Source of the DNA: Deltaproteobacteria bacterium
GTDB lineage: Bacteria > Desulfobacterota > Binatia > HRBIN30 > JACQVA1
Assembly: GCA_016178705.1 (NCBI GenBank)
Contig: JACOST010000028.1
Location: 516,951-580,950 of the forward strand
Direction: 5' to 3'
Length of the DNA stretch: 64,000 bases
The position numbers and the translations under genes were made by a program. Below are positions 24,741-43,079 of the stretch, piece after piece. The notes beneath the pieces are model-generated. The model was given only the letters and a program-made list of their open reading frames with translations. It ran no database searches and was not told the origin of the DNA. The number at the start of each line of letters is the position of its first letter. Position 1 is the first letter of the stretch.

Positions 24741-24788
24741 GTGCGCGCTCCTCCCGCGTGTTGAACTCGCGGCGCGGCGTGCACCGGA

Positions 24789-26039: not shown

Positions 26040-26238
26040 GTTGAGAGTCCTTTCATCTTTGCGGGCCCGACCGCGCACGATCTACCGTGGCGCGTAGGTG
26101 AAGGCAACCGACCAGAAGTGAAGCGCGTTTGGTTGACTCGTGCAAGGTGCTTTGGTTGTGTCGGAGCATGCCGATCGCCGAGTGCGTGCGCAGCGGAGCG
26201 CGGGTGCATTGTCGTTGCGCGACTCGGACGGCGGCATC

Positions 26239-27264: not shown

Positions 27265-27267
27265 TTG

Positions 27268-27319
27268 AGAGGGCGAAGCTTCGCTGATTCGCGTGGCTCG
27301 CCAGAAGGCTCGCCCTCCC
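27268..27319. repeat. REP-like palindromic element copy 1
   Basis: gagggcgaagcttcgctg...gccagaaggctcgccctccc, with arms GGGCGAAGCTTC / GAAGGCTCGCCC. Degenerate relative to copies 2-4. Confidence 0.6.
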
Positions 27320-27354
27320 TCGGATCGTGGGCAGTGCGGAGAGTGATGGGTTGC

Positions 27355-27422
27355 GGGAGGGCGAAGCTTCCGCTGAGCCGCAGGGCACGGGATGCGCGGC
27401 TCGCCGGAAGGCTCGCCCTCCC
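27355..27422. repeat. REP-like palindromic element copy 2
   Basis: gggagggcgaagcttccgctgagccgcagggcacgggatgcgcggctcgccggaaggctcgccctccc. Terminal arms are reverse complements. Confidence 0.7.
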
Positions 27423-27449
27423 GGCCGTCTTGTGCGAAGGGGGATTCCG

Positions 27450-27908
27450 ATGGCGTTGCCAGAACGCAAACGCCCGACGACCGGGGTTGTCGTTTCGTCG
27501 GACGGACCGACGATCGTCTTCGTCACTGTTTGCACCAAGGATCGTCGTCGTTGGCTTGCCACGCCGCAGGTCCACGCCCTGTTGCGAACGCTATGGGCGG
27601 ACTCGCGCGCTTGGCGTGTTGGTCGGTACGTTCTCATGCCCGATCACCTTCATCTCTTCTGCGCCCCCGGGGTTTCCGACATCTCGCTGGCGCGTTGGGT
27701 GAAATACTGGAAGGCGCAAGTGACTCACCACCATCGTGTCGCGGACCATCAGTGGCAAGCCGGCTGCTGGGACACGCGCTTGCGAACCGGCGAGAGCTAC
27801 GAGCGCAAGTGGGACTACGTGCGCAACAACCCGGTGCGACAACAGTTGGTCGGAGGCGCGAAGGATTGGCCGTATCAAGGCGAGTTGGCTGTTCTCCCCT
27901 GGTATTAG
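27450..27908 (+). mobile_element. REP-associated tyrosine transposase (RAYT; IS200/IS605-like Y1 HuH transposase)
   Basis: 152-aa ORF from ATG 27450 (MALPERKRPTT...). HuH motif HLHLF and a conserved downstream Tyr region (RKWDYVRNNPV). Flanked on both sides by paired REP palindromes. Confidence 0.75.
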
Positions 27909-27924
27909 ACTCGGATGAGGTCTT

Positions 27925-27991
27925 GGGAGGGCGAAGCTCCCCTGAGCCGCAGGGCGGGGGATGCACGGCTCGCCGGAAGGCTCGCCCTCCC
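27925..27991. repeat. REP-like palindromic element copy 3
   Basis: gggagggcgaagctcccctgagccgcagggcgggggatgcacggctcgccggaaggctcgccctccc. Confidence 0.7.
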
Positions 27992-28027
27992 GTCGGACTG
28001 GTTGAACGTACCGAGCGTGATGATTCC

Positions 28028-28089
28028 GGGAGGGCGAAGCTTCCGCTGAGCCGCGGCAGTGCGCGGTTCGCCGGAAGGCTCGCCCTCCC
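28028..28089. repeat. REP-like palindromic element copy 4
   Basis: gggagggcgaagcttccgctgagccgcggcagtgcgcggttcgccggaaggctcgccctccc. Confidence 0.7.
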
Positions 28090-28193
28090 TTTTCTTTGCG
28101 CGCGTACCTGAGTAAGACAGCCACATCATGCCGGACATGGATTGGGGCAAGTCGCTGTACGGAGAGTCGTCCGCACAAAAGAAGGAGCGAACA

Positions 28194-29882
28194 ATGGCCG
28201 TTGTCGATGGAGGCACTCTGGTCGGTCGAGTCCTGCGCGAACAGAATGTGAAGCATTTGTTCGCGATCAATGGCGGACACACGTTCCCGATTCTTGCGAA
28301 TCTGCGCAACAACGACATCAAGCTGATTCACATGCGGCACGAACAAGCGTGCGCGTACGCCGCCGATGCCTATGCGCGCACGACGGCGGGCGTCGGCGTG
28401 TGCAGCGTGACGGCGGGCTGCGGCCTGACCAACGCGGTGACTGGCTTGTGCGTGGCGGGACTGACGAACAGCGCCGTGGTGTGCATCGCCGGCCAGCATC
28501 CGACGACGGAGGACTACCTCGGTTCGTTCCAAGAGGCGTACGGCTCGGACGTCTGCCGCAGCTTTTCGAAGTACGTGAAGCGGGTGCTCGACTGGAGCAC
28601 GATCGAATTCGATTTGCGGCTGGCTTTCCGCGAAGCCCTCAGTCCGCCGCAAGGGGTGGGTTTGATCGAGATTCCCACCAACATTCTCTATCACGGCGAC
28701 GATGAGTCGAAGCAGCGCAAAGGCGCCAAGGTCTACGAGCCGGATGCCGTGCGCTCGCAAGGCGACCCGGCGCAAATCGAACGCGCGCTCGAACTGCTGG
28801 TGCGCGCGGAACGGCCGTTGATCGCGTGCGGCGATGGGATCTTCTGGTCACAGGCCGGCGCCGAGTTGCGCGAACTCGTCGACCTGACGCACATCCCAGC
28901 CTATGCGCGGCGAGCCGGGCAGGGTGCGATTGCCGAGGATCATCCGCTGGCGATCCGCGGCTCGTGGAAGAAGCCGTTCACCGGTCGCGCGGATGTGGTG
29001 TTGGCGATCGGCTTCCGCTTCTGGAGCGGCGAGCATTTCGGCGAGCCTCCGACATGGAACGACAAGGCGACCTATATCCAGGCCGATCCGGTGCCGAGCC
29101 GCATCGGGTGGCAGGTGCCGGCGGAAGTTGCGATCGTCGGCGATCCGAAGTTGGTGCTGCGCCAATTGATCGATACGGCCAAGCGCCTGAAGTTGGACTT
29201 CTCGCGTCAGCGCCAGTCGGCGTGGGTGAAGGAAGTCGCCGAGGTGCGTGCAAACTACGAGAACCTGATCGACGAGAGCGAACAGAAAGTGCGCGACCGC
29301 ACCCCTATTCATCCCGATCGACTGGCGCGCGATCTGTGCGCGGTGATGGACAAGGACGCCACGGTCGTCATCGACTCGTTCACGCTCAGCGGTTGGATGA
29401 CGCAGTGGTTCCGCGCTCGCTTTCCCGGACAAGTTGTCGATGCCGGTCCGCTGGCTCCGGTCGGTCATGGCGTCGGTATGGCGATCGGTGTGCAACTCGC
29501 GCGACCAGGTAAGCAAGTCGTGCTCGTCACCGGCGACGGCGGCCTCGGCATCGGCGGCTGGGACATCGAAACCGCGCTGCGCTACGATCTGCCAGTCCAA
29601 ACCGTGCTGTGGAACAACAGCTCATGGGGCCCGAGCTTTGAGCAGATGCCGTTGCTCAAAGGCCGCACCGATCCGTTCAACATGATCGAGAACATCCGGT
29701 ACGATCAGATGTTCAAGATCATGGGTTGTCACGGCGAGCACGCCGAGAAACCCGACGAGATCGTCCCGGCGCTCGAACGCGCGTTCAAGTCCGGCAAAGC
29801 GTCGCTGATCAACGTGGTTGGCGACAAACGCGTGGGGCATCCGCGCTTAGGCGGTAATCTGCTCGGATCGACGCAGGTCTGA
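28194..29882 (+). CDS. thiamine-pyrophosphate-dependent enzyme (acetolactate synthase/benzoylformate decarboxylase-like)
   Basis: Start ATG after GAAGGAG. TPP-binding motif GDGGLGIGGWDIETA...NN. N-terminal Pyr domain (…AINGGHTFPI…). Confidence 0.8.
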   Translation: MAVVDGGTLVGRVLREQNVKHLFAINGGHTFPILANLRNNDIKLIHMRHEQACAYAADAYARTTAGVGVCSVTAGCGLTNAVTGLCVAGLTNSAVVCIAGQHPTTEDYLGSFQEAYGSDVCRSFSKYVKRVLDWSTIEFDLRLAFREALSPPQGVGLIEIPTNILYHGDDESKQRKGAKVYEPDAVRSQGDPAQIERALELLVRAERPLIACGDGIFWSQAGAELRELVDLTHIPAYARRAGQGAIAEDHPLAIRGSWKKPFTGRADVVLAIGFRFWSGEHFGEPPTWNDKATYIQADPVPSRIGWQVPAEVAIVGDPKLVLRQLIDTAKRLKLDFSRQRQSAWVKEVAEVRANYENLIDESEQKVRDRTPIHPDRLARDLCAVMDKDATVVIDSFTLSGWMTQWFRARFPGQVVDAGPLAPVGHGVGMAIGVQLARPGKQVVLVTGDGGLGIGGWDIETALRYDLPVQTVLWNNSSWGPSFEQMPLLKGRTDPFNMIENIRYDQMFKIMGCHGEHAEKPDEIVPALERAFKSGKASLINVVGDKRVGHPRLGGNLLGSTQV

Positions 29883-29886
29883 GCGC

Positions 29887-31089
29887 TCAGATCGCGCCGC
29901 CGTCGCGCAGAGCGGCGATCTCCCGCGCTGACAAACCGAGCAACTCAGACAACACCTCGTCGGTATGTTGTCCGATCGTTGGCGGTGGCGTCACTGAGGG
30001 CTCCGGATCGTCCGAGAGTTTGATCGGCGTGCCGATCACCTTCACGCTGCCGCGTCCGGGATACTCGACCTCGCGCACGATGGCGCGTTCGACGAGGTGC
30101 GGATCGCGGCCGACTTCGGGGAGCGTCCGCACCGGTGCGCTGGGGATGCCGGCGGCGGCGACGGCGTGCGCCACGTCATCGCGGTTGCGAGTGATCGTCC
30201 ATTTTTCAACTTCGGCTTCGATCGTCTGCCAATCGGCGGCGCGCTCGGGCACGCCGTGCCAGCGCGCGTTGGCGAGCATGTCGGGACGGTCCATCAAGCG
30301 GCAGAGATCGAGCCAGTGTTGGTTCGACACGCACATGATGGCGACGTAGCCGCCATCGGCGCAGGGGAAGTTGTTGTACGGCGTGGCACCACCAACGACA
30401 TGCCGATTGCCGCTGCGAGTGATTTCCTGGTTCAGTTCGTAGAACGGCGCGAGATAGCTGAGCAGGGCGGGGACGGCGGCGTCGAACATCGCGACTTCGA
30501 CACGTTGCCCGCGTCCGGTTCGTTCGCGCTCCCGCAACGCAAGCAGGATTCCGGCGAGCAGATGCGTGGCGCCGAGCATATCGATGAACGTCGGTCCACA
30601 CTTCACCGGCGGTAAGTCGGGGTAGCCGGTGATGGCCATCGCGCCGACGAGGGCCTGAATGGTGAAGTCCATCGCGGGGTAGCCGACATATGGACCGGTG
30701 GTGCCGAAGCCGCTGCCAGAGGCGAAGACGAGGCGCGGATTGCGCACGCTGACCACGTCGTAGCCGATGCCGAGTCGTTCCATCACGCCGGCGGCGAAGT
30801 TTTCGACGATCACGTCTGCATGTTCGGTGAGCTGCAGAAACAGCTCGCGTCCGCGCTCGTGCTTGAGGTTGATGGTGACGCCGCGCTTGTTGGCGTTGAG
30901 CATGAGGAACGGATAGCTGGCGCCGCCGGGCGAGCGGTCCATGCGCCGCAAGACGTCGCCCTGCGGCGACTCGATCTTGATGACGTCGGCGCCGTGATGC
31001 GCGAGCAGGAGTGAGCAGTACGGGCCGTTGTAGATCTGCCCCAGTTCGAGCACGGTGAGGCCGGCGAGCGGTCGCGTCGACGCGGTCAT
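29887..31089 (-). CDS. family III CoA-transferase (CaiB/BaiF/formyl-CoA transferase-like)
   Basis: Start at internal ATG (MTASTRPLAGLTVLELGQIYNGPYCSLLLAHHGADVIKIE). Typical CaiB N-terminus and conserved Asp region. Confidence 0.8.
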   Translation of the reverse strand: MTASTRPLAGLTVLELGQIYNGPYCSLLLAHHGADVIKIESPQGDVLRRMDRSPGGASYPFLMLNANKRGVTINLKHERGRELFLQLTEHADVIVENFAAGVMERLGIGYDVVSVRNPRLVFASGSGFGTTGPYVGYPAMDFTIQALVGAMAITGYPDLPPVKCGPTFIDMLGATHLLAGILLALRERERTGRGQRVEVAMFDAAVPALLSYLAPFYELNQEITRSGNRHVVGGATPYNNFPCADGGYVAIMCVSNQHWLDLCRLMDRPDMLANARWHGVPERAADWQTIEAEVEKWTITRNRDDVAHAVAAAGIPSAPVRTLPEVGRDPHLVERAIVREVEYPGRGSVKVIGTPIKLSDDPEPSVTPPPTIGQHTDEVLSELLGLSAREIAALRDGGAI

Positions 31090-31211
31090 GATTGGGGGGG
31101 TGTAGCAGGTGTCGCCGGGCAGGGGCCAGCGGCGACGCAATTCAATACCCGGCTTGCGCTACCGCTGGCAGACGCTGATACTCGCGGCAAATCTCATCCG
31201 GAGGTGCTGTG

Positions 31212-31859
31212 ATGAAGCTCTACAACATGAACCTGAGCAACTTCGCTTCGAAGTGCCGGCTGGCGATCTACGAGAAGAACGCGCCGGTCGACATCGTCGC
31301 GATTCCCGGCGGCGAGTTGAAGTCACCCGAGTATTTGAAAGTCTACCCACTCGGGAAGACGCCGGCGCTGGAAGTGAACGGGCAGATCATCGGCGAATCG
31401 GAAGTCATCGTCGAATACTTCGAAGAGAAGTTTCCCGACAAGCCGTTGCTGCCGAAGGACCCCGAGAGCCGGGCGCGGTCGCGTGGCTTCGGCCGTTTCC
31501 ACGATCTGTATCTCGAACCACCGATCCGGGCGCTGTTCCCGCAAGTGGCGGCGAAGGAGAAGGATCAGAAGTTGATCGCCGACAAGCTGGCGGAAATCAA
31601 AACCCGCTTCGATCAACTCGAAGGCATGTTGTCGTCGGGGCCGTACGCGTTGGGGAGCGCGTTCACGCTGGCCGACTGCGCGGTGATCCCGACGATGTTC
31701 TTCGCTAACTTGCTGTTGCCGATGCTCGGTGGCGCGGCGCCGACCGAGGGGCGTCCGAAGCTCGCCGCATGGTGGGCCAAGGTGCAAGAGCGCCCCGCCG
31801 TGCAGAAGGTGCTCGGCGAGCAGCAGCAGGCTCTGATGGAGATGCAGCAGCGGCGGTAG
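31212..31859 (+). CDS. glutathione S-transferase
   Basis: N-terminal thioredoxin-like GST domain (MKLYNMNLSNFASKCRLAIYEK...YPLGKTPALEV). RBS GGAGGTG. Confidence 0.8.
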   Translation: MKLYNMNLSNFASKCRLAIYEKNAPVDIVAIPGGELKSPEYLKVYPLGKTPALEVNGQIIGESEVIVEYFEEKFPDKPLLPKDPESRARSRGFGRFHDLYLEPPIRALFPQVAAKEKDQKLIADKLAEIKTRFDQLEGMLSSGPYALGSAFTLADCAVIPTMFFANLLLPMLGGAAPTEGRPKLAAWWAKVQERPAVQKVLGEQQQALMEMQQRR

Positions 31860-31861
31860 GG

Positions 31862-31895
31862 GTCAGGGGCTAGGGGTTAGGGGTTAGGGTCTGGG
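31862..31895 (+). other. G-quadruplex-forming telomere-like motif (GGGGYTA)x4
   Basis: tcaggggctaggggttaggggttagggtctggg immediately after the GST stop. Four or more G-tracts of 3-4 nt separated by 3-nt loops. Confidence 0.4.
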
Positions 31896-32012
31896 AAACG
31901 GCCGGCGCCCTACGCGGGCGATGGTGTTGAGTGCCGCGTCGTCGATTGATGTGGCGATAGCTCGCGCCGCCTGAACGTAGGCATCTCGACTCATCGCACT
32001 GGAGGATCACTC

Positions 32013-32792
32013 ATGGGCTACGAATTCATCAAATACGAGAAGGACGGGCGCATCGCCCGCATCATGATCAATCGGCCGGAGGTGATGAATTCCCTGCACC
32101 CGATGGCGAATCAGGAACTGTCGGCGATCTTCGACGATTTCGCGGGCGATCCCGAGTGTTGGGTGGCGATCGTCACCGGCGCGGGTGAGAAGGCGTTCTC
32201 GGCGGGCAACGACCTGAAGTACTCGGCGCAGCACGGCATGGGTGCGGTATCGATGGGCAAGGGCGGTTTTGGCGGCCTCACCGCGCGCTTCGATTTGTTC
32301 AAGCCGGTGATCGCGGCGGTCAACGGCTTCGCGCTCGGTGGCGGGTTCGAGATCGCGCTCGCGTGCGACATCATCGTCGCCGCCGATCACGCCCGCTTCG
32401 GCTTGCCGGAGCCCAAGGTCGGCTTGGCGGCGCTGGCCGGCGGCATGCAGCGATTGCCGCGCCACATTCCGCCGAAAATCGCGATGGGTCTGATGCTCAC
32501 CGGCCGTCATCTGATGGCGGCGGATGCGCTCAAACTCGGCATCGTCAACGAGGTCGTGCCGTTTAAGGACTTGGCGGCCACGGCGGATCGCTGGGCGAAT
32601 GAGATTCTCGAATGCTCGCCAACCTCGGTGCGCGCCACTAAGCAGGTCGCACTCCTCAGCGAGGGGATGCCGCTCGAAGATTCGCTCAAGAAATCCTATC
32701 CGTTGGTCGGTGCCCTGTTCGGGTCGGAAGACATGATGGAGGGCGTTACAGCGTTTGCGCAGAAGCGCAAGCCGCAGTGGAAGGGGAAGTAA
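32013..32792 (+). CDS. enoyl-CoA hydratase/isomerase family protein
   Basis: Crotonase signatures (ARIMINRPEVMNS...AVNGFALGGGFEIALACD). Confidence 0.85.
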   Translation: MGYEFIKYEKDGRIARIMINRPEVMNSLHPMANQELSAIFDDFAGDPECWVAIVTGAGEKAFSAGNDLKYSAQHGMGAVSMGKGGFGGLTARFDLFKPVIAAVNGFALGGGFEIALACDIIVAADHARFGLPEPKVGLAALAGGMQRLPRHIPPKIAMGLMLTGRHLMAADALKLGIVNEVVPFKDLAATADRWANEILECSPTSVRATKQVALLSEGMPLEDSLKKSYPLVGALFGSEDMMEGVTAFAQKRKPQWKGK

Positions 32793-32821
32793 CCCTCGCC
32801 CCGTCAGGGGTGCCTAAGATG

Positions 32822-32860
32822 ACAGAAGCCCGAGGGAGATACTCTCCCTCGGGCTTCTGT
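32822..32860. terminator. bidirectional stem-loop terminator between crotonase (+) and tRNA-Gly (-)
   Basis: Perfect 16-bp inverted repeat agaagcccgagggaga-tact-tctccctcgggcttct. Confidence 0.5.
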
Positions 32861-32869
32861 GCTTGTCAG

Positions 32870-32943
32870 AGCGGGCGACCGGGTTCGAACCGGCGACTTC
32901 AACCTTGGCAAGGTTGCGCTCTAGCCAGCTGAGCTACGCCCGC
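32870..32943 (-). tRNA. tRNA-Gly (anticodon GCC)
   Basis: Reverse complement GCGGGCGTAGCTCAGCTGGCTAGAGCGCAACCTTGCCAAGGTTGAGGTCGCCGGTTCGAACCCGGTCGCCCGCT folds as a cloverleaf. 7-bp acceptor stem, TTCGAAC T-loop, anticodon loop TTGCCAA. Confidence 0.8.
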
Positions 32944-33041
32944 ACGCATCGGAATCTAGCGAAGGATTGCCGCGGAGTCAAAACAGACTGAACGAACAGG
33001 CGGAAACGAATACCAGGACGGCACTGCGCGTCTAATCGGCC

Positions 33042-33515
33042 ATGAATCGTATTGCGAAACACGAACTCCCCAAGCAGCGGGTCGCCGCGCGCATGCGCCG
33101 TTTGGGGCTTGCCGTCCGTTCCGTGCACTCCAACCTGGGACACGATCTGTTGGTCGACGATCATCTGCTGGTCAGTTTGCGCGTCGCCTTTCCCAGCGTT
33201 CGCCATCACCGCGTGCGTGTGGGTGGGCGCGAGTACCGTTATCGGTACCCCAGTTGGCACTTCAACTTTCACCACCACGGCGAGATGAAGGATCGCTATA
33301 CCGACTTTTTCGTCTGCGTCGCGGTGCCGCCGGCGAACGCAGCACGCGCCACGGAGATCTTTGTGATTCCCTGGGAGGGCCTGCGTGGTAAGACGTTCTC
33401 GTTGCACGCCGGCCGCCACCGCTACGCGGGGCAATACGCCTGCTATCGCGACGGTTGGGCGCAACTTGTTGAGGCGGTTCGGCGCGAAGCAACCCACCTC
33501 CGCGCGGTTGCCTAA
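33042..33515 (+). CDS. hypothetical protein (His/Arg-rich; possible nuclease-like fold)
   Basis: 157 aa, adjacent to tRNA-Gly. Segment GHDLLVDDHLLVSLRV weakly resembles a PD-(D/E)xK core. No confident family assignment. Confidence 0.35.
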   Translation: MNRIAKHELPKQRVAARMRRLGLAVRSVHSNLGHDLLVDDHLLVSLRVAFPSVRHHRVRVGGREYRYRYPSWHFNFHHHGEMKDRYTDFFVCVAVPPANAARATEIFVIPWEGLRGKTFSLHAGRHRYAGQYACYRDGWAQLVEAVRREATHLRAVA

Positions 33516-33684
33516 CCTCAGTCCGATAAAGGAGAGGAAACCGCCGATGTACGCCGATGAACGCAGATGCGGAATTCGGCGCGACTGGCGACTCATCGCG
33601 TGATCACCACATGCGCTCCGATCAGATTTAGCGATCTCTCCTGTCTTGGCGGAACGCTCTGATCGGCGGACATCGCGGAGATGG

Positions 33685-34125
33685 CTACGGAGTGACGGTG
33701 ATGGTCACCGAGTCGCTGTCGGTCCGCCCGTCGGGGTCGCGAATGGTAACGGTCGTGTTGTACTCGCCCGGCTTTTCGTAAACGTGGTTTGGGCTCTGCT
33801 CCTTGACGTGCGGCGTCCCATCGCCGAAGTCCCATTCGAAGAGGGAGGGTCCGTCGGTGCAGCCGCCTTCGGCCTGCATCGAAGCGTTGAACGGCGCCTT
33901 GCCTTCGATGTTGGGAGGTACGGCGACGACCGCGCAGTGCGGCGGCTCGGGCGTGGTCGGCACTTCCGGTGCGGCGACCCGGGGCGGCGGTGGCGGCGGC
34001 AGCTTGCCCTCGATTCGTCGTGGTTGCGGTGGCGGCGGGGCTTCGGTGCACGACCGGCACGACGAAAGCAGGACGGCCGTGGAAAGCAACAGACTGAGGA
34101 GCAACAAGCGGCGTACGGACGACAT
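33685..34125 (-). CDS. PKD-domain lipoprotein
   Basis: Signal peptide plus lipobox (LLSSC). Pro-rich linker. One PKD domain (WDFGDGT...NHVY...GEYNTTVTIRD). Confidence 0.7.
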   Translation of the reverse strand: MSSVRRLLLLSLLLSTAVLLSSCRSCTEAPPPPQPRRIEGKLPPPPPPRVAAPEVPTTPEPPHCAVVAVPPNIEGKAPFNASMQAEGGCTDGPSLFEWDFGDGTPHVKEQSPNHVYEKPGEYNTTVTIRDPDGRTDSDSVTITVTP

Positions 34126-34188
34126 AGCGGCACTTTGTAGCGGGGCGGAGGCGGGGGCGTCAAGCCATCGTGGTCACCCTGTCGATGG

Positions 34189-34977
34189 TCAGTCCGTCGG
34201 CTCCTCTCCGTTGGGTTCGGTCTGCTCGGGTTCATCCACTTGGATTTCGATCTCCTTGCTGCCCTGCTGCCCGTTGGTGTGGGTGACCGTGAGCTTCAGC
34301 GTGTAGGTCCCCGCCGCGATGTAGACGTGTTCCGCGTTCTTGCCGCGCGTCGAGCCGCCGTCACCGAACGACCACTCGTACGCGGCCACATCGTTCTCCA
34401 TATCGTCCGGGACCACAGCGGACAGTTTCGTTTTCAGCGGCGCCGGGCCGATGTCGGGATCGGCTTCGATGTCGACGTCGAAGCCTTCCTCGGTGACGTC
34501 GATGCTGAACTCGCGCGTCTCGTCGATCTCCGGTCCGGCGAGCGTCAACACCGCCGTGTATTCGCCTGCGTTGCGATAGCGGTGGATGGGGCTCTTGACG
34601 GTCACCGGCGGGCTGGCGTCGCCGAAGTCCCAGCGGAAGGTGAGACCCGCAGGCGGATCCTCGATGGTGAGCGTGAACTCGACATCGAGAGGCGCGCCGC
34701 CGGAGGTTGGTTCGGCGTCGGCGTCGAAAGTGAAACCGCTCCCCGGCTCGTCGGCGCTGTCGTCGGACTCCTCGGCGGGCGGCGCGGTTGGGGCGATGAT
34801 GAGTCCGGCTCCCATCGACGGGGCGACGATGCGTCCGGCCGCGGGTACCGCAGCGGAATCACTCACGTCAGCGTCGCCTGCCCCGCCGCAACCGATGAAG
34901 CGGCAGCCCATCAGTGCGAGGCACAAGAGCAATGGCGCTTGCGTGATCCAGTGGCGCGCGCGCGCGTTCCGATTCAT
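34189..34977 (-). CDS. tandem PKD-domain lipoprotein
   Basis: Lipobox LALMGC. Two PKD repeats (FRWDFGDASPP...HRYRNAGEYTAVLT and YEWSFGDGGST...HVYIAAGTYTLKLTVT). Acidic C-terminus. Confidence 0.7.
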   Translation of the reverse strand: MNRNARARHWITQAPLLLCLALMGCRFIGCGGAGDADVSDSAAVPAAGRIVAPSMGAGLIIAPTAPPAEESDDSADEPGSGFTFDADAEPTSGGAPLDVEFTLTIEDPPAGLTFRWDFGDASPPVTVKSPIHRYRNAGEYTAVLTLAGPEIDETREFSIDVTEEGFDVDIEADPDIGPAPLKTKLSAVVPDDMENDVAAYEWSFGDGGSTRGKNAEHVYIAAGTYTLKLTVTHTNGQQGSKEIEIQVDEPEQTEPNGEEPTD

Positions 34978-35271
34978 CGCGAGTCATTTACTGGGGCCGC
35001 AGCGGGTGTGTCAATTCGCCGAGCGCTCGCTCGTCCTCACGGAGAGCCAGATTCGGAGGAAGAGAACTCAACGCAAAGTCGCCACGGCGCAAAGGCGCAA
35101 GGCGAGTATTCTTTGAAGGAGGGCTCATCCCTCTGAGCTACTACTCCCGAAAGTCGTTGTGCATCGCGAAGCGTTTTGCCAGCCACCTTCGACTTTGGAC
35201 TTTGAACCTTGAACTTCGGATTGAGGCTCGGTTGCGTGGGTACAGGGCGTATGTTAGCTGACCGCACGCGC

Positions 35272-35344
35272 GGCGGCGTACCCAAGTGGTTAAGGGAGGG
35301 GTCTGCAAAACCCCGATGCAGCGGTTCGAATCCGCTCGCCGCCT
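35272..35344 (+). tRNA. tRNA-Cys (anticodon GCA)
   Basis: GGCGGCGTACCCAAGTGGTTAAGGGAGGGGTCTGCAAAACCCCGATGCAGCGGTTCGAATCCGCTCGCCGCCT. Acceptor GGCGGCG/CGCCGCC, anticodon loop CTGCAAA, T-loop TTCGAAT. Confidence 0.8.
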
Positions 35345-35371
35345 TTCTCGCCTGTATGCCCGGACCGGCCG

Positions 35372-35456
35372 GCCGGGGTGGTGGAACTGGCAGACACACA
35401 GGACTTAAAATCCTGTGGGGGTTTCCCCCGTGCGGGTTCGAGCCCCGCCCCCGGCA
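35372..35456 (+). tRNA. tRNA-Leu (anticodon TAA), type II with long variable arm
   Basis: GCCGGGGTGGTGGAACTGGCAGACACACAGGACTTAAAATCCTGTGGGGGTTTCCCCCGTGCGGGTTCGAGCCCCGCCCCCGGCA. Anticodon loop CTTAAAA. Variable arm GGGGGTTTCCCCC. Confidence 0.8.
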
Positions 35457-35542
35457 CTTGCACTAACAGCCGCCCGGCGCGACGTTGCAGATAGTAGAGG
35501 ACGTGCGCTATAGCCCCGTCTTCAGCGCAGGGGCGATAGCCA

Positions 35543-36523
35543 ATGCCATTTTTCCTTCGCAAGGCGATGACGTTCGGTCCGCTTCGACTGAACGTATCCA
35601 AGTCGGGTCTCGGGGTGTCAGTCGGCGTCAAGGGCGCGAGGATAGGGATTCGCGGTTCAGACGGCCAGCCGTACGTGCACGGCGGGCGGTACGGGTTGTA
35701 CTACAGGCAGAATCTGGGGTCGGTGAAGCCGGGCGGTGGTGGCACCAGCCAAGGGACGCGTCCCGTGAAGCGTGATGCTGAAGCTCAGATCGAGCGCGCT
35801 ACTGCAATTGTTGTTGAAGTGCTTGAGGAAACACGTGACGACTGGCTCCCTACCTTCCGGTACGAACTCGATATCACGTTGCACCCGAGTGGAAAATTTG
35901 AGGATGAGGACTCCGCGACGACGAAAGAGAAGAGACGACTTGCCGACGAATTGGTGGAAGAGGCTCAAGGGCGGCTCACGCGTGAGGGCTTCCCGGTCGG
36001 CGACGAAAAGTTCGATCGAGTGACTGGCGCTACCCTAAGCGAATTGATGCTACAAATGGCCTTTCCCGTGGAGTCGCGTCAGCCGTGGGGCGTGGAGCTC
36101 GACGACATGCTCGGCAGAGTCGCGGACGTGGCCACGCAAATTGTGCATCTACGCAGGTTCGATACATGGGCAAGAGTGGCTCCAGGCGGCCAACTACCCA
36201 CCGACCAACGGGTATGGAGTCAGCGGGTAGGGGATGTAGCGATGGAATTGAATAATATCATCATGCTTGAGTTGAAACGCCAAGGGCTGGTGCTGGAGAG
36301 CAATCCGATCTACCTGGCGCGTCTCAACGACGTAGCCGCCGACGTGGTGGGAGCGAGCATCTTGCACCCCACACCCGATGTGATCTCGTGGCACCACCAG
36401 GGTTGCCCACCCAGAGGAGCCGCCCCCTCGGTCGACCCAGAGCAACAAATGAAGGCGGACCCTGAGTTGGCGCAGCCCGCGCCACAGCTTCACGGCGGGG
36501 TCATGGCCGTATGGCTTTTCTAG
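35543..36523 (+). CDS. DUF4236-like N-terminal domain protein (hypothetical)
   Basis: N-terminus MPFFLRKAMTFGPLRLNVSKSGLGVSVGVKGARIG matches the FRxRKSxKxGPxRxNLSKSGxSxSxG pattern of DUF4236. Remainder unassigned. Local GC drops to about 50-55%. Confidence 0.5.
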   Translation: MPFFLRKAMTFGPLRLNVSKSGLGVSVGVKGARIGIRGSDGQPYVHGGRYGLYYRQNLGSVKPGGGGTSQGTRPVKRDAEAQIERATAIVVEVLEETRDDWLPTFRYELDITLHPSGKFEDEDSATTKEKRRLADELVEEAQGRLTREGFPVGDEKFDRVTGATLSELMLQMAFPVESRQPWGVELDDMLGRVADVATQIVHLRRFDTWARVAPGGQLPTDQRVWSQRVGDVAMELNNIIMLELKRQGLVLESNPIYLARLNDVAADVVGASILHPTPDVISWHHQGCPPRGAAPSVDPEQQMKADPELAQPAPQLHGGVMAVWLF

Positions 36524-36920
36524 CCCTTTTGTTTTCCTATCTTGTGGTTGTTTTGGCCAAATAGGTGGCGATCCGGTTGCATCGAGACGCTTGCGGACAA
36601 GTCAACAATACAGTTGAGCTAGACGGGAAGGACGTGGCGCTGCGAACCAGCCCAGCCAGCGCCGGTAACCCGCCAGAGGACACCAGCACCAAACGCTCAG
36701 GCCGCCGTGATCGCGGTCGGTCCGGGCCGCTAGTGCAACGCTCAGTCTTTCATCTGCCGATGTTCGAGCGAGGGTCGGTGATGGCAACGGCATTGGAGAA
36801 GTGCCGAGTGGCGCGTAGCGAGTCACCTGGTTTGCCCGTGCGTGATAGCTGCGCGATGTCGAGGAAAGAGGAGGCGCTCTTGGCCGCGGACGATCTACCT
36901 AGTACAAATGCTAGAGGTAC

Positions 36921-37559
36921 ATGGACACTACAGAAACCGCGAGGCTCCGGAGATTCGCGCTGACGGCGGCCCTCCTCCTCATTACCTACGTAGAGGCGGG
37001 AATCGTTGTCGAACCCGATGCACGGATCTCGGTGTTCGGTGTTCCGGTTCATGTCGGGCGCCCTGATCTGCTTCCTGCCGGGCTCGCGCTCGCGGCGCTC
37101 TGCGGCGGCCTCCGCTTTTACTACTACGGTCTCATGCTTGCGACGAGCCCGCATCGAAAGCGCAGAGAACTCCTCAACGGTCTCACGGCCCATTTCGACG
37201 AATACATCCGGCCAGGAAAACCCATCAAGCCCGGCGCGGTCGTCTCCGGCACCAAGATTCCAATGTACTGGGGGCCGCAGAAGTTCGAGACAGCATCGCA
37301 CTATGACGAAGAGCTTGTGCGGAAGCGCGCCATGGCCTTCGACAATGTATTTCCAAAATTCGCTTGCAAGCGCGCATCCGCGCGAGTCGTGGGTGAAACG
37401 TTTCTTGATGATGAGGGCGAAACACATCAAAACTACTGCGTTGAAGTCATCGTGCCTCTACGTTGTCGTGCCGCAGCGATCTTCGAGGATCTCGACTACA
37501 CGGCTCCAGCGTGGGTGAGTGCTTGCGCCTTCCTGCTCTTTCTCCGGACGCTTGCTTGA
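36921..37559 (+). CDS. hypothetical membrane protein (2-3 N-terminal TM helices plus soluble C-terminal domain)
   Basis: 212 aa. Hydrophobic segments FALTAALLLITYV and LLPAGLALAALCGGL. Reduced GC. Follows the DUF4236-like gene after a ~400-bp AT-richer spacer. Confidence 0.45.
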   Translation: MDTTETARLRRFALTAALLLITYVEAGIVVEPDARISVFGVPVHVGRPDLLPAGLALAALCGGLRFYYYGLMLATSPHRKRRELLNGLTAHFDEYIRPGKPIKPGAVVSGTKIPMYWGPQKFETASHYDEELVRKRAMAFDNVFPKFACKRASARVVGETFLDDEGETHQNYCVEVIVPLRCRAAAIFEDLDYTAPAWVSACAFLLFLRTLA

Positions 37560-37701
37560 CCGAGCCCATGCTCTCCCAATCCCTTTGCAACCGCTCCCCC
37601 CACGGAGCGGCGACCGGGGAAGGCGAGGGTCAACACTCGCATGGCGGCCTTTGTTTCCTTGCAGTTGACACATGCGGGCAGTTTCACCCCGAAGGTGAGC
37701 G

Positions 37702-38358
37702 ATGACCCAGACCTCCGATCCCGCTCAGTTCTTTGCGGATAGAAGCCGAAGCTACGTTCGTTTCGTCCGCTCCGTGCGCTATCCGCAAGGGCTTCGCGGC
37801 TTCTTCCTGAGTTCGCCGTTGCTCCGTTCCGATCTCCGGGTACTTGACGCGGGCTGTGGGACCGGCATCGTCACGCTCGCGTTGCGCGAGGCTCTCCTGC
37901 GTCGCGGCCTTCGTCCTGGAATCACACACGGCTTCGATCTCACTCCGGCGATGATCGAGCGCTTCCGCCAGTCGCTGCGAACGCGGGCGATCGAAAACGT
38001 GGACCTCGTGCAGGCCGATGTCCTTCGACTGGATACGCTTCCGACTTCCTGGAACAACTACGACCTCATCGTTTCAGCCTCGATGTTGGAATACGTTCCG
38101 CCGAATCGATTGGTCGACGCGCTGCGCGGGCTGCGTGGACTGCTGAACGAAGAGGGCACGCTCTTGCTCTTCATCACGCGACGAAACTGCCTGACGCGGC
38201 CACTCATCGGCCACTGGTGGGCGTCGAATCTCTACACCGCGCAAGAGATCGAGGAAGCATTCCGTCAGGCGGGCTTCTCAGCGATCGCCTTCCGGAACTT
38301 CCCGCTCGCGGTCGCCTACCTTGCTCTGTGGGGTCATATCGTCGAGGCGCGACGCTGA
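37702..38358 (+). CDS. class I SAM-dependent methyltransferase
   Basis: Motif I VLDAGCGTGIV, post-I HGFDLT, motif II/III region DLIVSASMLEYV. Confidence 0.75.
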   Translation: MTQTSDPAQFFADRSRSYVRFVRSVRYPQGLRGFFLSSPLLRSDLRVLDAGCGTGIVTLALREALLRRGLRPGITHGFDLTPAMIERFRQSLRTRAIENVDLVQADVLRLDTLPTSWNNYDLIVSASMLEYVPPNRLVDALRGLRGLLNEEGTLLLFITRRNCLTRPLIGHWWASNLYTAQEIEEAFRQAGFSAIAFRNFPLAVAYLALWGHIVEARR

Positions 38359-38675
38359 GGGCGTTCGCATGTGCCCACCCCGCCGCAGTCTCGATGAGAC
38401 AAAAGAAGGTTCACCGCAGAGAACACCGAGGGCGCCGAGCCGCGCGAGAATTCACCCTGCATAGCAAATCTCATTGGGGATGACCTTTCGATCGCTGATG
38501 CGGTGATGCGATTGGTCGAGGTTCTCTGCGGTCTCGGCGATCTCGGCGGTGAATCGGTCTTCCGGCACGTGCCGGCTTGGCTCAGTCGCACCAGTGTGCT
38601 TTCATACCGCTCAAGGATGGGCGGGGTGGACTACGAAGGTAATTTGAATCGACGCAATCCCCTCCGAAAACTTCT

Positions 38676-39752
38676 GTGAACAAATCCTTCATCGTTGGTG
38701 TGCGTCTGCTGATCGCGACGCTCGTGGTGGCCAGTTCAACCGCTTACGCGCGGCAGTGGACGGAGGAGGACTTCCTCCACAAGCGCGGCGCCGCGCACTT
38801 CATGATCGTCGCCGGCAACGATTGGCGCGCCACGCAGTCGGTCGTCGGCAGCACGCGCTTCTACCAAGTGCAGCAAGGCGATACGTTCCTCGATCTCGCG
38901 CGCTACAACGGCCTCGGTTACAACGAGTTGGTCGAAGCCAATCCCGGCGTCGATGTGTGGATACCGCCCCCCGGGCAAGTGATCCTGCTGCCGACCGAGT
39001 TCGCCTTGCCCGACGTGAGCCCGCGCGGCGTGGTCGTCAACATTCCGGAGATGCGGCTGTACTACTTCCACAAGCGTCCCAACGAGCAGACGCCACTACT
39101 CGTCACCACCTACCCGGTCGGACTCGGGCGCGACGATTGGAAGACGCCGGTCGGTACGTTCAAGGTGGTCGAGAAGACCGTCAACCCACGATGGATCTTG
39201 CCCGAATCGATCCGTGCCGAGCATCGCAAGGACGGCCGGCCGGCGCCGCCGTTCATCGAGGGCGGTGATCCGGAGAATCCGCTCGGCAAGTATCGCTTGC
39301 GGCTGACGCTGCCGCTCTACGGCATCCACGGCACTGACATCCCGTGGGGTGTCGGCATGCAGGTCAGTCACGGCTGCGTGCGTTTGTATCCCGAGGACAT
39401 CGAACAGCTCTTTCCCCTGGTGTCGGTGGGCGACCCCGGCGAGTTCGTCTATCAGCCGGTCAAGATCGGATCGCGCAACGGTGAGATCTACGCCGAGGTG
39501 CACAAGGACATCTACAATCTGACGCCAGGTCCGTACCGTGAGGCGCAACGATTGTTGCAAAAATTCGGTTGGGCCAATCGGGTCGACGATGCTCGGCTCC
39601 GTCGCGCGATCACCGAGGAGTCGGGTGCTCCCATCTTGATCTCGCGCGATGCGGCGAGCGATGCGGTGGTGGAAGAGCGATTTCGCCCGCGGCCCACGCC
39701 AGCGCGCGTCGAGGGCGTCACGCCAGCCGTGCAAGCCGCGAAACCACGCTGA
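38676..39752 (+). CDS. LysM-domain L,D-transpeptidase (YkuD family)
   Basis: Signal peptide. LysM (YQVQQGDTFLDLARYNGLGYNELVEANPG). YkuD catalytic motif HGT...SHGCVRL. Confidence 0.8.
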   Translation: MNKSFIVGVRLLIATLVVASSTAYARQWTEEDFLHKRGAAHFMIVAGNDWRATQSVVGSTRFYQVQQGDTFLDLARYNGLGYNELVEANPGVDVWIPPPGQVILLPTEFALPDVSPRGVVVNIPEMRLYYFHKRPNEQTPLLVTTYPVGLGRDDWKTPVGTFKVVEKTVNPRWILPESIRAEHRKDGRPAPPFIEGGDPENPLGKYRLRLTLPLYGIHGTDIPWGVGMQVSHGCVRLYPEDIEQLFPLVSVGDPGEFVYQPVKIGSRNGEIYAEVHKDIYNLTPGPYREAQRLLQKFGWANRVDDARLRRAITEESGAPILISRDAASDAVVEERFRPRPTPARVEGVTPAVQAAKPR

Positions 39753-39992
39753 CGTTGTGGACAACCCTTCGCATTCCCAACGTGCTCCCTTTCCCGTGCG
39801 TCTCCGTGTCTCTGCGGCGAGAACCTTTCTGCCAGCAGCCCGTTGAAAAGTGCGGCGCCCTTCGAGACGGCGCTTCGCGCCTCCTCAGGGTGAGCGGGAA
39901 AATGTTGTGGCAGAAGGGAAGAACCGCTCATGCTGAGGAGCGCCGACAGGCGCGTCTCGAAGCATGCGGAGTTCTTCAACAGGCTGCTAGTT

Positions 39993-40847
39993 CTAGTTGC
40001 CCATCGCCAGCGGCGTACCGAGACAGAAACAGCGCGAGGCGACGGTGGGATCGGTCCGTCGTACCTCCTCACAACCGAGCTCGGTCCGGAACACCGTGCC
40101 CTGGACATCAGAGACTGTGACGATGCGGCGTGTCGGTGGAAACGTCTGTGGGTGCGGGTACGCATAGTAACCCCACACGGTGCACGTCAGCGCGGCGCTC
40201 AGCCGATACTGCAGCACGTTCACCTGGTCGTTGAGGGTCTGGTTCTCTTGCGCCAGTTGAGCTTGGCGCTCGCGCTGTGCGGCGGCGCGGCTGGCGACCT
40301 CTTCGGACTCCTTGCCGATGCGATCGAGTTCCTGCACCAGCACATTGTTCTCCTGCCGCAGCGCGGCGAGTTCTTCGTTCAGCGCGGCGTTCTCCGCCTC
40401 GCTTTGTTCGCGCTCGGCTTTGAGCGCGCTCAGCGACGCGTTGAGTTTGGTGAGCCGGGGTTCCGCCACCGGGCTCGGACTGGGAGTTGGCGATGCGGCG
40501 GCGACTGCAAAGCGCCGCTCGCTTTGAATTAGCGCCCCAAAAAACGGCGCGCGCACTTTCAATCGGTAGATGCCCGGTTCCGGAAGATCGGCGGCCGTCA
40601 ATTCGAACGGCGATCGTTGCAGGCCCAAGTCGCGCGGACTGCCGTCATCGCCGTGGAGCGAGAGCGCGAGTCGCGGTGGCCCATCCCACTGCACCACCAG
40701 CGGCAACGACACCAGCGCCCCTTCGCCGGGCGAGAGGATGGCTGGCTGCAGCAACCGGTAGAGCGGGGTGTCCAAGTACAGTTCGATCAACAGCAGGGCC
40801 GCTATCGTAACCGCCACGATCTCCAAGGTCCGCCGCACAGTCGGCAT
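39993..40847 (-). CDS. membrane-anchored coiled-coil protein (hypothetical)
   Basis: N-terminal TM helix. Central ~100-aa heptad-like region (LNASLSALKAEREQSEAENAALNEELAALRQENNVLVQELD...). Cys-containing C-terminus. Confidence 0.5.
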   Translation of the reverse strand: MPTVRRTLEIVAVTIAALLLIELYLDTPLYRLLQPAILSPGEGALVSLPLVVQWDGPPRLALSLHGDDGSPRDLGLQRSPFELTAADLPEPGIYRLKVRAPFFGALIQSERRFAVAAASPTPSPSPVAEPRLTKLNASLSALKAEREQSEAENAALNEELAALRQENNVLVQELDRIGKESEEVASRAAAQRERQAQLAQENQTLNDQVNVLQYRLSAALTCTVWGYYAYPHPQTFPPTRRIVTVSDVQGTVFRTELGCEEVRRTDPTVASRCFCLGTPLAMGN

Positions 40848-41081
40848 TATAGGTCAATCGCCGGGCGCGCGACTACCCCGGCTCTCGCAATTGGAGCGCT
40901 TGCGAAGGGCTCGCGCAGCGGCCAGAAACTTGACTCAGTGGAACATCCCGGTTAAGCGTCAACGGCTTTTCGACAGGATAAATCAAAGGCGTTTCACGGT
41001 GGATAGCGATGGGTTGGAACGACGGATGCCCGCGTCGACGCCGTTGAACCCTCGACCCGCGAACCGCTGAACCCCTCACCG

Positions 41082-42338
41082 ATGCGCTACGAGTTGTTCA
41101 TTGGCCTGCGCTACTTGCGCGCGAAGCGCAAGGAAGCCTTCGTGTCGCTGATCACCATCATGTCGATCTTCGGCGTACTGATCGGCGTGATGACACTCAA
41201 CATCGCGCTGGCGATCATGACCGGCCTCGAAGAGGACCTGCGCGACCGCATCCTCGGCTTCAATCCCCACGTCGTCGTGTTGAGCTACAGCGACAACATC
41301 CCGAGCTACCAATCGGTGGTCGACCGCATCCAAACCATCCCCGACATCGTGGCGGTGGAGCCGTTCGTCTACGGGCAGGTGATGCTGTCGACGCAACAGA
41401 ACATGTCCGGCGTCGTGGTGCGCGGCGTGCTCCCGGCACGCGGCGGCGCGGTGGATTTGGAGCGCTACCTGTCGCAAGGCCACCTCGAAGATCTCGCCAC
41501 GCTCCACACGGTGCAACGCGATCCCGGGATCGGCGGCACCGTGCAGTTGCCCGGCCTCATTGTCGGCAAGGAGCTGGCCCGGCAACTCAGTCTGGTGATT
41601 GGCGATCCGGTCAGCGTAGTCTCCCCGATGGGCACGCCGAGCGCGGCCGGATTGGTGCCGCGAGTGCGGCGCTTCGCGGTGGTGGGCGTGTTCGACTCGG
41701 GTATGTCGGAGTACGACGCCTCGCTGGTGTACATGAGCATCGTCGATGCGCAGCGGTTTTTCGATCTCACCGACGCCGCCACCGGCATCGAGATCCGCGT
41801 GCGCGATCTCTACCAAGCCAGCCGCGTCGCGGCGGCGGTTAGCAAGGAACTCGGCTTTCCCTACCGCGTACGCGATTGGATGGAGGTGAACCACAATCTG
41901 TTCTCGGCCCTCACGTTGGAAAAGACCGTGTACTTCATCGTGCTGATGCTGATCATCTTGGTGGCCGCGTTCAACATCGTGGCGACGCTGATAATGGTGG
42001 TGATGGAGAAACGCAAGGACATCGCGATTCTCAAATCGATGGGAGCGACCGCCACCAGCGTGGCGCGGGTTTTCGTCTACAAAGGCCTGATCATCGGCGT
42101 CGTCGGGACGCTGCTCGGCAACCTCGGTGGCTATCTGGGTTGTGTGGCGCTGCAACGCTACGAGTTCATCAAGCTGCCGGCCGATGTGTTCTACGTCTCC
42201 ACGGTACCGGCCAAGATGTATCCGGAGTACTTCGCGGCGGTGACGTTGGCGTCGCTGCTGATCTGTCTGCTGGCCACCATCTATCCCGCGCGTCAAGCGG
42301 CCCGCCTCGTGCCGGTCGATGTCATCCGCTATGAGTGA
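41082..42338 (+). CDS. lipoprotein-releasing system permease (LolC/LolE family, FtsX-like)
   Basis: 418 aa. MacB/FtsX-type topology. Typical LolCE N-terminus MRYELFIGLRYLRAKRKEAFVSLITIMSIFGV. Confidence 0.85.
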   Translation: MRYELFIGLRYLRAKRKEAFVSLITIMSIFGVLIGVMTLNIALAIMTGLEEDLRDRILGFNPHVVVLSYSDNIPSYQSVVDRIQTIPDIVAVEPFVYGQVMLSTQQNMSGVVVRGVLPARGGAVDLERYLSQGHLEDLATLHTVQRDPGIGGTVQLPGLIVGKELARQLSLVIGDPVSVVSPMGTPSAAGLVPRVRRFAVVGVFDSGMSEYDASLVYMSIVDAQRFFDLTDAATGIEIRVRDLYQASRVAAAVSKELGFPYRVRDWMEVNHNLFSALTLEKTVYFIVLMLIILVAAFNIVATLIMVVMEKRKDIAILKSMGATATSVARVFVYKGLIIGVVGTLLGNLGGYLGCVALQRYEFIKLPADVFYVSTVPAKMYPEYFAAVTLASLLICLLATIYPARQAARLVPVDVIRYE

Positions 42339-43011
42339 CGCGCCGTTGATTCGCGCAGTGGGCCTGACGAAAGTTTACGGCGACGGCGGCCACACGGTGC
42401 CCGTGCTCACCGGCCTCGACCTCGAAGTGCAAGCTGGAGAGATGGTGGTCATCGTCGGCGAGTCGGGCGTCGGCAAGAGCACACTGCTGCACATCCTGGG
42501 AGCGCTCGATCGGCCCACGTCGGGACAAATTTATTTCGACGGCACGGATCTCGCCACGCTCGGCGAGCGCGAGCTGGCGGGGCTGCGCAATCGCGAGGTC
42601 GGCTTCGTATTCCAGTTTCATCATTTGCTGCCCGACTTCAGTGCACTTGAGAATGCGATGATGCCGGCGCTGATTCGCGGCGACTCTTTCGAACAGGCTG
42701 CGACGCGGGCGCAGGAACGGCTGACGCAAGTCGGACTCGCCGATCGCTTGACCCACAAGCCGGGCGAGTTGTCGGGTGGCGAGCAGCAGCGCGTGGCGAT
42801 CGCACGGGCTGTCGTGGGCTCGCCGCGTGTGATCTTGGCCGACGAACCGACCGGCAACCTCGATCCAGCCACCGCCGATAGTGTCCACACTCTGTTGGTG
42901 GAGTTGAACAAAGGCCACGGGATTACCTTCGTGATCGTCACGCACAACGAACGGCTGGCGGCGCTGGCCGATCGGACGTTGCGGCTCTATCACGGAGCCC
43001 TGACGTGTTGA
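42319..43011 (+). CDS. lolD: lipoprotein-releasing system ATP-binding protein
   Basis: Walker A GESGVGKST, signature LSGGEQQRVAIARA, Walker B ILADEPTGNLD. Start 42319 or 42331 (ATGAGTGA overlap with lolCE stop). Confidence 0.85.
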   Translation: MSSAMSDAPLIRAVGLTKVYGDGGHTVPVLTGLDLEVQAGEMVVIVGESGVGKSTLLHILGALDRPTSGQIYFDGTDLATLGERELAGLRNREVGFVFQFHHLLPDFSALENAMMPALIRGDSFEQAATRAQERLTQVGLADRLTHKPGELSGGEQQRVAIARAVVGSPRVILADEPTGNLDPATADSVHTLLVELNKGHGITFVIVTHNERLAALADRTLRLYHGALTC

Positions 43012-43079
43012 GTCGCGGCGTGGCCCGGCCGCGCTTTACAGCGAGCAAGGCGTTTGGTAGCCAATCGCTCCAATCAAGC

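Follow-up and report, generated by a model that had tools for sequence, protein, structure and literature searches.

Two questions arise where a tRNA gene is followed by DNA that differs between related genomes and that carries a soluble-protein gene and a small membrane-protein gene side by side: whether this DNA was acquired, and whether the two genes form a functional pair. Both are raised by a 64,000-nt stretch of contig JACOST010000028.1 (hereafter the window; coordinates are window positions unless a locus identifier of the form L### is given), from a genome whose relatives, according to homologue searches, are Candidatus Binatia. Downstream of a tRNA-Leu(UAA) gene, the window encodes a 326-amino-acid (aa) protein with an N-terminal DUF4236 domain and a 212-aa membrane protein (here TM212), which a preliminary description had likened to the sensor and effector of a two-gene defence module at a tRNA hotspot. 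The segment that holds the two genes, 35480–37686, is a replaceable cassette at that hotspot, and we favour, with a probability of about 0.7, the reading that it is a decayed tRNA-linked islet at the 3′ end of tRNA-Leu(UAA) carrying two unrelated cargo genes.

The boundaries of the cassette were obtained by comparison with a sister genome. A homologue search with a 262-aa PKD-domain protein encoded on the other side of the tRNA-Leu gene returned P0141, which is 84% identical to it, on a 198-kb Joint Genome Institute (JGI) contig (L110) that is collinear with window positions 25944–44162 at 88–96% nucleotide identity (blastn). The homology spans tRNA-Cys(GCA) (35272–35344, + strand) and tRNA-Leu(UAA) (35372–35457, + strand), stops at 35479, 22 bp beyond the tRNA-Leu 3′ end, and restarts at 37687, 15 bp upstream of the start codon of a methyltransferase gene, as located by the blastn breakpoints and an alignment of the junctions. 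Between these breakpoints lies a strain-variable cassette of 2,207 bp, composed of the DUF4236 gene, a spacer and the TM212 gene, with the 3′ end of tRNA-Leu as its left boundary. At the same site, L110 carries an unrelated segment of 3,261 bp (L110 6164–9424). Since this unrelated segment stands between intact flanks, the DUF4236/TM212 segment is a replaceable cassette at the tRNA-Leu(UAA) 3′ end, and synteny with a relative lacking the insert thus agrees with the earlier proposal of variable, acquired DNA at a tRNA hotspot.

The sister-genome cassette comprises a 715-aa open reading frame (ORF) rich in Cys and Thr/Pro, a SHOCT-domain lipoprotein gene and a 58-aa ORF that abuts tRNA-Leu, and its genes have a GC content at third codon positions (GC3) of 0.67–0.71, compared with 0.79 in the flanks. 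The 58-aa ORF has no Pfam match, and the only sequences it matches in databases are the C-terminal ends of genes annotated as integrases, in 106 plasmid records (45% identity over 38 aa, E = 0.2). The 715-aa protein looks secreted and is likewise without a Pfam match. Independent Logan assemblies of the source samples yielded contigs, 100% identical to the window, that end inside tRNA-Leu and just before an L,D-transpeptidase gene of the right flank (L001, L002), breaks that are consistent with a replaceable cassette. In more distant Binatia, both the DUF4236 gene and the TM212 gene are missing at the tRNA-Cys locus (L111, L113 and L114), and the same is true of 40 L,D-transpeptidase loci.

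The composition of the cassette departs modestly from that of the rest of the window, with GC3 as a clearer signal than overall GC. Against a reference of the 57 other window ORFs (mean 0.788, standard deviation 0.041), GC3 is 0.68 in the DUF4236 gene (z = −2.7) and 0.65 in the TM212 gene (z = −3.3), and these are the two lowest-GC3 real genes in the window (~59 ORFs). Codon composition, like synteny, is therefore in line with acquisition. Overall GC averages 0.595 over 35458–37560 and 0.641 over the whole window, with the lowest 400-bp windows at 0.57, so that the fall to 50–55% reported after tRNA-Leu was an overstatement. The spacer between the two genes (36524–36920) had been described as AT-richer and about 400 bp long; its length of 397 bp is confirmed, but its GC of 0.592 hardly differs from that of the flanking genes (0.598 and 0.588). 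A second low-GC stretch (~42900–45300, 0.59–0.60) equals the cassette in GC and lies inside an 812-aa gene that has a GC3 of 0.80 and is kept in L016 and L110. Because GC3 is normal and the gene is conserved in relatives, the low GC at ~43–45 kb reflects amino-acid composition and not acquisition, and GC alone is thus not diagnostic of acquired DNA in this window.

In other lineages, tRNA-Leu(UAA) carries marks of insertion. Eight loci were returned by a metagenome scan for the Cys–Leu tRNA junction. In L095 (926–1012 and 4893–4950) and its sibling L101, an exact second copy of ~60 bp of the 3′ part of tRNA-Leu, starting in the anticodon loop and reaching the tRNA end, lies 3.9 kb downstream; the two copies enclose a TPR/DUF4034 gene and an AAA_22-like gene, with no integrase gene, and the interval looks like a small islet bounded by attachment (att) sites in another lineage. 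L111, a locus of a Binatia metagenome-assembled genome (MAG), holds a 56-bp fragment of the 3′ part of tRNA-Leu (2501–2556), the 5′ half of which is absent, next to AbiEi_1 and PDDEXK_3 genes (714–1109 and 1518–2318). At this locus, the L,D-transpeptidase gene is inverted and lies directly beside tRNA-Cys, a layout that suggests an island insertion plus an inversion at the tRNA locus. The repeats of L095/L101 and the fragment of L111 are classic footprints of integrase-mediated insertion into tRNA-Leu. The different cassette of the sister genome, the GC3 values and these att-type duplications together bear out the earlier view of the DNA as acquired.

The history that would account for these observations is one in which tyrosine integrases have repeatedly targeted the 3′ part of tRNA-Leu(UAA), the window cassette has since lost its integrase gene and its distal att repeat through decay, and two cargo genes of lower GC3 remain. 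If the 326-aa DUF4236 protein and TM212 have a function at all, they would then most likely exert it separately, as cargo of mobile elements, rather than as a sensor/effector pair. Several points weigh against this history. There is no integrase gene or remnant within 35458–37700, nor any other mobility gene in the window cassette. When the 3′ ends of tRNA-Leu, tRNA-Cys and tRNA-Gly were compared with the whole window, exactly and with 2–4 mismatches, no att repeat was found, and local alignments of these ends to the window gave scores no higher than shuffled controls; the att-like repeats of tRNA 3′ ends expected earlier are thus present in other lineages (L095/L101 and L111) but not in the window. 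Integration is consequently deduced from position and relatives and is not directly seen. The integrase remnant of L110 stems from weak matches, at the E-value given above. Finally, a single close relative spans the site, so that a gain in the window lineage and a replacement in L110 both fit.

This last point bears on a reading in which the two genes are ancestral, lineage-core DNA of the genus and L110 alone has replaced or deleted them. The lack of mobility genes and att sites in the window cassette suits it, as does the position of the integrase remnant, which sits in the cassette of L110 and not in that of the window. Conversely, both genes are GC3 outliers, both are absent from the tRNA-Cys locus of three more distant Binatia and from the 40 L,D-transpeptidase loci, and the nearest homologues at other loci share no more than 41% and 68% identity with them, in unrelated genomic surroundings. 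Among the rival readings, this one ranks below the single-gene functions weighed further on and is considered very unlikely.

Within the islet, the first cargo gene (35543–36523, + strand) encodes a soluble protein of 326 aa whose residues 5–55 match Pfam DUF4236 (PF14020) at 44.9 bits, above a gathering cut-off of 27. No transmembrane (TM) segment is predicted, and the earlier label of a DUF4236-like cytoplasmic protein is confirmed. The DUF4236 domain is followed by a rare all-helical domain (~75–285) and by a unique Pro/Ala-rich tail. An AlphaFold model shows a beta-rich N-terminal domain of low confidence and a helical bundle at 75–285 with a predicted local distance difference test score (pLDDT) of 70–87; with this model, Foldseek found no match in the PDB at E ≤ 0.001, and a PDB sequence profile search returned no solved structure for any DUF4236 member. 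Full-length homologues number only five (35–41% identity), and an exhaustive phmmer search with the helical domain (residues 80–290) recovered 7 clusters among 1.84 billion representatives. The family at large is typically membrane-anchored, since 113 of the 120 retrieved DUF4236 proteins (P0001–P0120) have a TM segment at about residue 100–150. Among PHROG phage families, nine without an assigned function match the N-terminal domain; outside that domain, Pfam, NCBIfam, PHROGs and PADLOC returned no match to the 326-aa protein. The one paper found to mention DUF4236 lists it among the hypothetical proteins of a Salmonella prophage remnant; no relatives of the 326-aa protein were found in the GenBank phage collection or IMG/VR.

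The gene is followed by the non-coding spacer, which has no Rfam match, promoter or terminator, whose ORFs have no Pfam match, and which is not similar to the spacers 3′ of the homologues. A conserved partner or element in that position was also sought by comparing the small ORFs and spacers 3′ of the DUF4236 homologues, and none was common to them. The homologues in L003 and L004 lie among small hypothetical genes with toxin-antitoxin genes nearby, and those in L006 and L007 have an IS5-type transposase domain downstream.

The second cargo gene (36921–37559, + strand) encodes TM212, a predicted three-helix inner-membrane protein. The N-terminal TM helices described earlier are supported: TM prediction calls one N-terminal helix, and the AlphaFold model (pLDDT 83.6, predicted template-modelling score 0.71) adds a second and a C-terminal one. 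The helices span residues 3–26 (strongly hydrophobic), 51–73 and 180–211, and an alpha/beta domain of ~100 residues lies between helices 2 and 3; from the basic stretch after helix 2 in the model, this domain is probably cytoplasmic. The 14 homologues of TM212 (40–68% identity) share the strongly conserved motifs RPDLLPxGLA, RFYYYGxMLATSPxRxRRD, MYWGP, FPKF and PxRCRxAAxxEDxDY. TM212 has no match in Pfam, NCBIfam, PHROGs, PADLOC or PDB sequence profiles, its model has no Foldseek match in the PDB or BFVD at E ≤ 0.001, and searches of IMG/VR, the GenBank phage collection and PLSDB plasmids gave no match.

The neighbourhoods of the TM212 homologues are varied. Truncated HsdR/ResIII and Mrr genes and a transposase gene (IS5-type in L008) lie beside the homologues in L008–L010, whereas the homologue in L011 is directly 3′ of ribD, in a housekeeping context. 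In a Binatia MAG (L012, 8001–8637; L013, 2930–3566), the homologue is frameshifted into two overlapping ORFs among hypothetical genes and is probably a pseudogene. The copy in L103 is near an integrase fragment and an unrelated methyltransferase gene, and in L104–L109 the gene is part of a four-gene operon followed by IS630. The window methyltransferase was considered as the partner of TM212 and rejected, because the methyltransferase of L103 is only 27% identical to it over 75 aa, stands in the opposite order and is missing from the remaining contexts. The product of a 244-aa gene that overlaps the TM212 gene in L104–L109 is unrelated to the DUF4236 protein and to the window methyltransferase.

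These contexts answer the question of whether the two genes form a pair. Loci with the DUF4236-helical family (L003–L007) and with the TM212 family (L008–L014 and L103–L109) were surveyed, and in 13 loci (~7 independent contexts) the two families were never neighbours. An all-against-all BLAST of the neighbourhood ORFs of at least 50 aa showed nothing common between contexts except the two families themselves, which never occurred together. The two genes are thus evolutionarily independent; in other environmental genomes, each turns up sporadically and without the other, for the most part within flexible regions. Flexible-genome neighbours include IS5-type transposases (L007 and L008), IS630 (L104), the integrase fragment (L103), HsdR/Mrr remnants (L008–L010) and toxin-antitoxin genes (L003). 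With about seven independent contexts, the sample is small for a claim that the two never act as facultative partners, and this tells against the reading of unrelated cargo.

If the genes are separate, one or both could still have a single-gene conflict function on mobile elements, with TM212 as an exclusion, defence or toxin-like protein and the DUF4236 protein in an anti-host or anti-defence role. Both families are rare and patchy and lie beside insertion sequences (IS), integrase, restriction-modification or toxin-antitoxin remnants; the strongly conserved charged motifs of TM212 imply a selected function, and the DUF4236 N-terminal domain has the PHROG matches given above. Set against these points are the lack of PADLOC matches, the absence of homologues from IMG/VR and phage collections and (for TM212) from plasmids, the housekeeping context after ribD in L011, the frameshifted homologue of L012/L013, and an association with flexible regions that is weak at such a sample size. 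On balance, a conflict role of this kind is unlikely. There is a slimmer chance that TM212 could found an undescribed single-gene, membrane-acting conflict system (exclusion, defence or addiction) that moves between integration hotspots of soil bacteria, and the TM-less DUF4236/helical protein is a less likely candidate for such a role than TM212.

The least probable reading is that the 326-aa protein and TM212 are the soluble sensor and the membrane effector of a two-gene abortive-infection or defence module: the variable cassette at the tRNA hotspot holds the two genes side by side in one orientation, the combination of a soluble and a membrane protein fits, the window subfamily lacks the membrane anchor of most DUF4236 proteins, TM212 homologues lie near restriction-enzyme remnants in L008–L010 and the tRNA-Leu fragment of L111 lies beside AbiEi, but the families neither co-occur nor share a partner in the loci surveyed, the 397-bp gap does not make a tight operon, no effector-type domain or fold was found, and neither protein has a match in PADLOC-DB at E ≤ 1, so that the earlier suggestion of such a module is not upheld.

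In the right flank of the cassette, the gene at 37702–38358 (+ strand) encodes a 218-aa class I S-adenosylmethionine (SAM)-dependent methyltransferase (Pfam Methyltransf_25, 3.6e-16; GC3 0.735) that is 88% identical at the amino-acid level in L110, and its 3′ end is also found in L015. It is absent beside the L,D-transpeptidase gene in more distant Binatia, and it is the right conserved flank at the genus level, which may represent an older acquisition. An identity with mad2 of the methylation-associated defence system MADS was considered and rejected, as the PADLOC match is limited to the SAM-methyltransferase core (profile 271–426 of 492), no other mad genes are nearby and the gene is kept in L110. 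Next lies a LysM and YkuD L,D-transpeptidase gene (38676–39752, + strand; Pfam), which has orthologues across Binatia and is syntenic there with a coiled-coil gene (39993–40847). Between the methyltransferase and L,D-transpeptidase genes, the gap at 38362–38543 is ~180 bp in the window and ~40 bp in L110 and contains an imperfect inverted repeat (38413–38429 and 38516–38532); it may be a small inserted element.

The L,D-transpeptidase gene is not linked to the tRNA cluster outside the genus, since no tRNA gene occurs within 10 kb of it at the 40 Binatia loci, and the PKD gene accordingly became the synteny anchor. Orthologues of the genes at 24441–29882 directly adjoin the L,D-transpeptidase and coiled-coil pair (38676–40847) in many other Binatia, which places the segment at 30–38.6 kb, including the tRNA cluster, at a synteny breakpoint of the genus. 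In the same part of the window, ARAGORN called an 82-nt tRNA-Arg(ccg) at 25296–25377 (− strand), inside a conserved 429-aa ORF (24789–26078, − strand) that is 75% identical in other Binatia. The call has no Rfam support at the gathering threshold and is probably a false positive.

The left flank answers a further question, namely whether the accessory DNA extends upstream to the tRNA-Gly gene, as the preliminary description had assumed. In the region, three tRNA genes were called by ARAGORN and Rfam alike, the third being tRNA-Gly(GCC) (32869–32943, − strand; Rfam 65.9 bits), and the Rfam, promoter and terminator scans of the region revealed nothing beyond these three. The interval from tRNA-Gly to tRNA-Cys is 2,328 bp, in agreement with the ~2.3 kb described, and holds three protein genes: a 157-aa conserved hypothetical protein (h157; 33042–33515, + strand) without a family match, a 146-aa lipoprotein with one PKD domain (33685–34125, − strand; Pfam PKD_4, 1.1e-14; lipobox LSSC at residues 20–23) and the 262-aa lipoprotein with two PKD domains (34189–34977, − strand; Pfam PKD_4 in two stretches, 8.4e-28; lipobox LMGC at residues 22–25). 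Each PKD protein starts with a signal peptide that carries a lipobox cysteine, the lipobox being recognised by pattern only.

This block is kept in relatives. L110 has tRNA-Gly, h157, both PKD genes and tRNA-Cys in unchanged order; the h157 gene is missing from L111, where tRNA-Gly, tRNA-Cys and two PKD genes are present; and L113 and L114 keep tRNA-Gly, h157 and the PKD gene(s) at 45–57% amino-acid identity, with tRNA-Cys present in L113 and not detected in L114. In all four relatives, tRNA-Gly occupies the same place. The h157 gene belongs to the lineage core, and its orthologues in the same position are 92% (L110), 55% (L113) and 57% (L114) identical. The 146-aa PKD protein has orthologues in L110, L111 and L114, and the 262-aa protein has, besides P0141, the orthologue P0142 (57%) and copies in L098, L113 and L114; in L098, the PKD gene adjoins tRNA-Cys–Leu. 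The tRNA-Gly/h157/PKD/tRNA-Cys block is therefore an old conserved Binatia arrangement and not accessory DNA, contrary to the earlier assignment of the PKD lipoproteins and h157 to an accessory stretch: with 45–92% amino-acid identity, it is kept in L110 and L113 and mostly in L111 and L114.

The h157 protein had also been called nuclease-like. It has the motifs SWHFNFHHHG and GKTFSLHA, invariant across Binatia, but no Pfam, NCBIfam or PDB match and no relatives in IMG/VR. A segment of 13 aa, DLLVDDHLLVSLR, aligns to DVLVEDELILELK, the PD-(D/E)XK core of a PDDEXK_3 protein; the E-x-K positions read S/A-L-R in h157 and are conserved in four orthologues. From this alignment, it is possible that h157 holds a degenerate PD-(D/E)XK-like motif. 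The genes described for the interval, a hypothetical and two PKD lipoproteins, are thus as stated, and the nuclease label is not established by a 13-residue resemblance.

Taken as a whole, the locus is an ordinary tRNA insertion hotspot with a small flexible-genome cassette, and its kind is already known. Its significance lies in three points. First, integration at tRNA-Leu(UAA) is documented as recurrent in Binatia, a little-studied class. Second, the tRNA bracket is corrected: it delimits no island but is an ancient tRNA cluster that has been rearranged and encloses conserved genes, the flexible part being the 2.2 kb after tRNA-Leu. Third, both cassette genes belong to very rare orphan families, and for one of these, the TM212 family with its 15 members, the model is confident and has no fold or family match. 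Should neither gene have a phenotype, the cassette would be routine flexible-genome content.

Four known systems provide a comparison. The abortive-infection modules of two genes, such as CBASS with a 2TM/SLATT effector or Thoeris-like layouts, likewise have, at a hotspot, a soluble-protein gene whose downstream neighbour encodes a small membrane protein with several helices; the window pairing differs in that it is not conserved, its genes are 397 bp apart, and the proteins have neither a PADLOC or SLATT-type Pfam match nor a nucleotide-signalling or sensor domain. Compared with other PF14020 proteins, the 326-aa protein carries the conserved motif FYxRKxxxxGPLRLNLSKSGxGxSxGxxGARxG, but the window subfamily (6 proteins) is TM-less and has the rare helical domain instead. 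The cassette resembles a tRNA-associated genomic island in that its variable DNA starts ~22 bp from the tRNA-Leu(UAA) 3′ end, in its deviant GC3, in the different content of the sister genome at the same site and, among relatives, in the integrase remnant and the att-type duplications of the tRNA 3′ end. It differs in having no integrase gene or flanking direct repeat, and because it is only 2.2 kb long, with two genes, it is at best the remnant of a decayed island. The tRNA genes themselves recall the glyW–cysT–leuZ type of cluster, in which the same three tRNAs occur: the Gly(GCC)–Cys–Leu(UAA) cluster is intact in E. coli, where it lies between pgsA and yecA, and at the metagenomic loci L097 and L102, and Cys and Leu are adjacent in the window as they are there. 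In Binatia, by contrast, tRNA-Gly is inverted and is parted from tRNA-Cys by h157 and the PKD lipoprotein gene(s). Gly–Cys–Leu is thus an ancient and widespread tRNA cluster, of which Binatia carry a rearranged form that encloses conserved protein genes.

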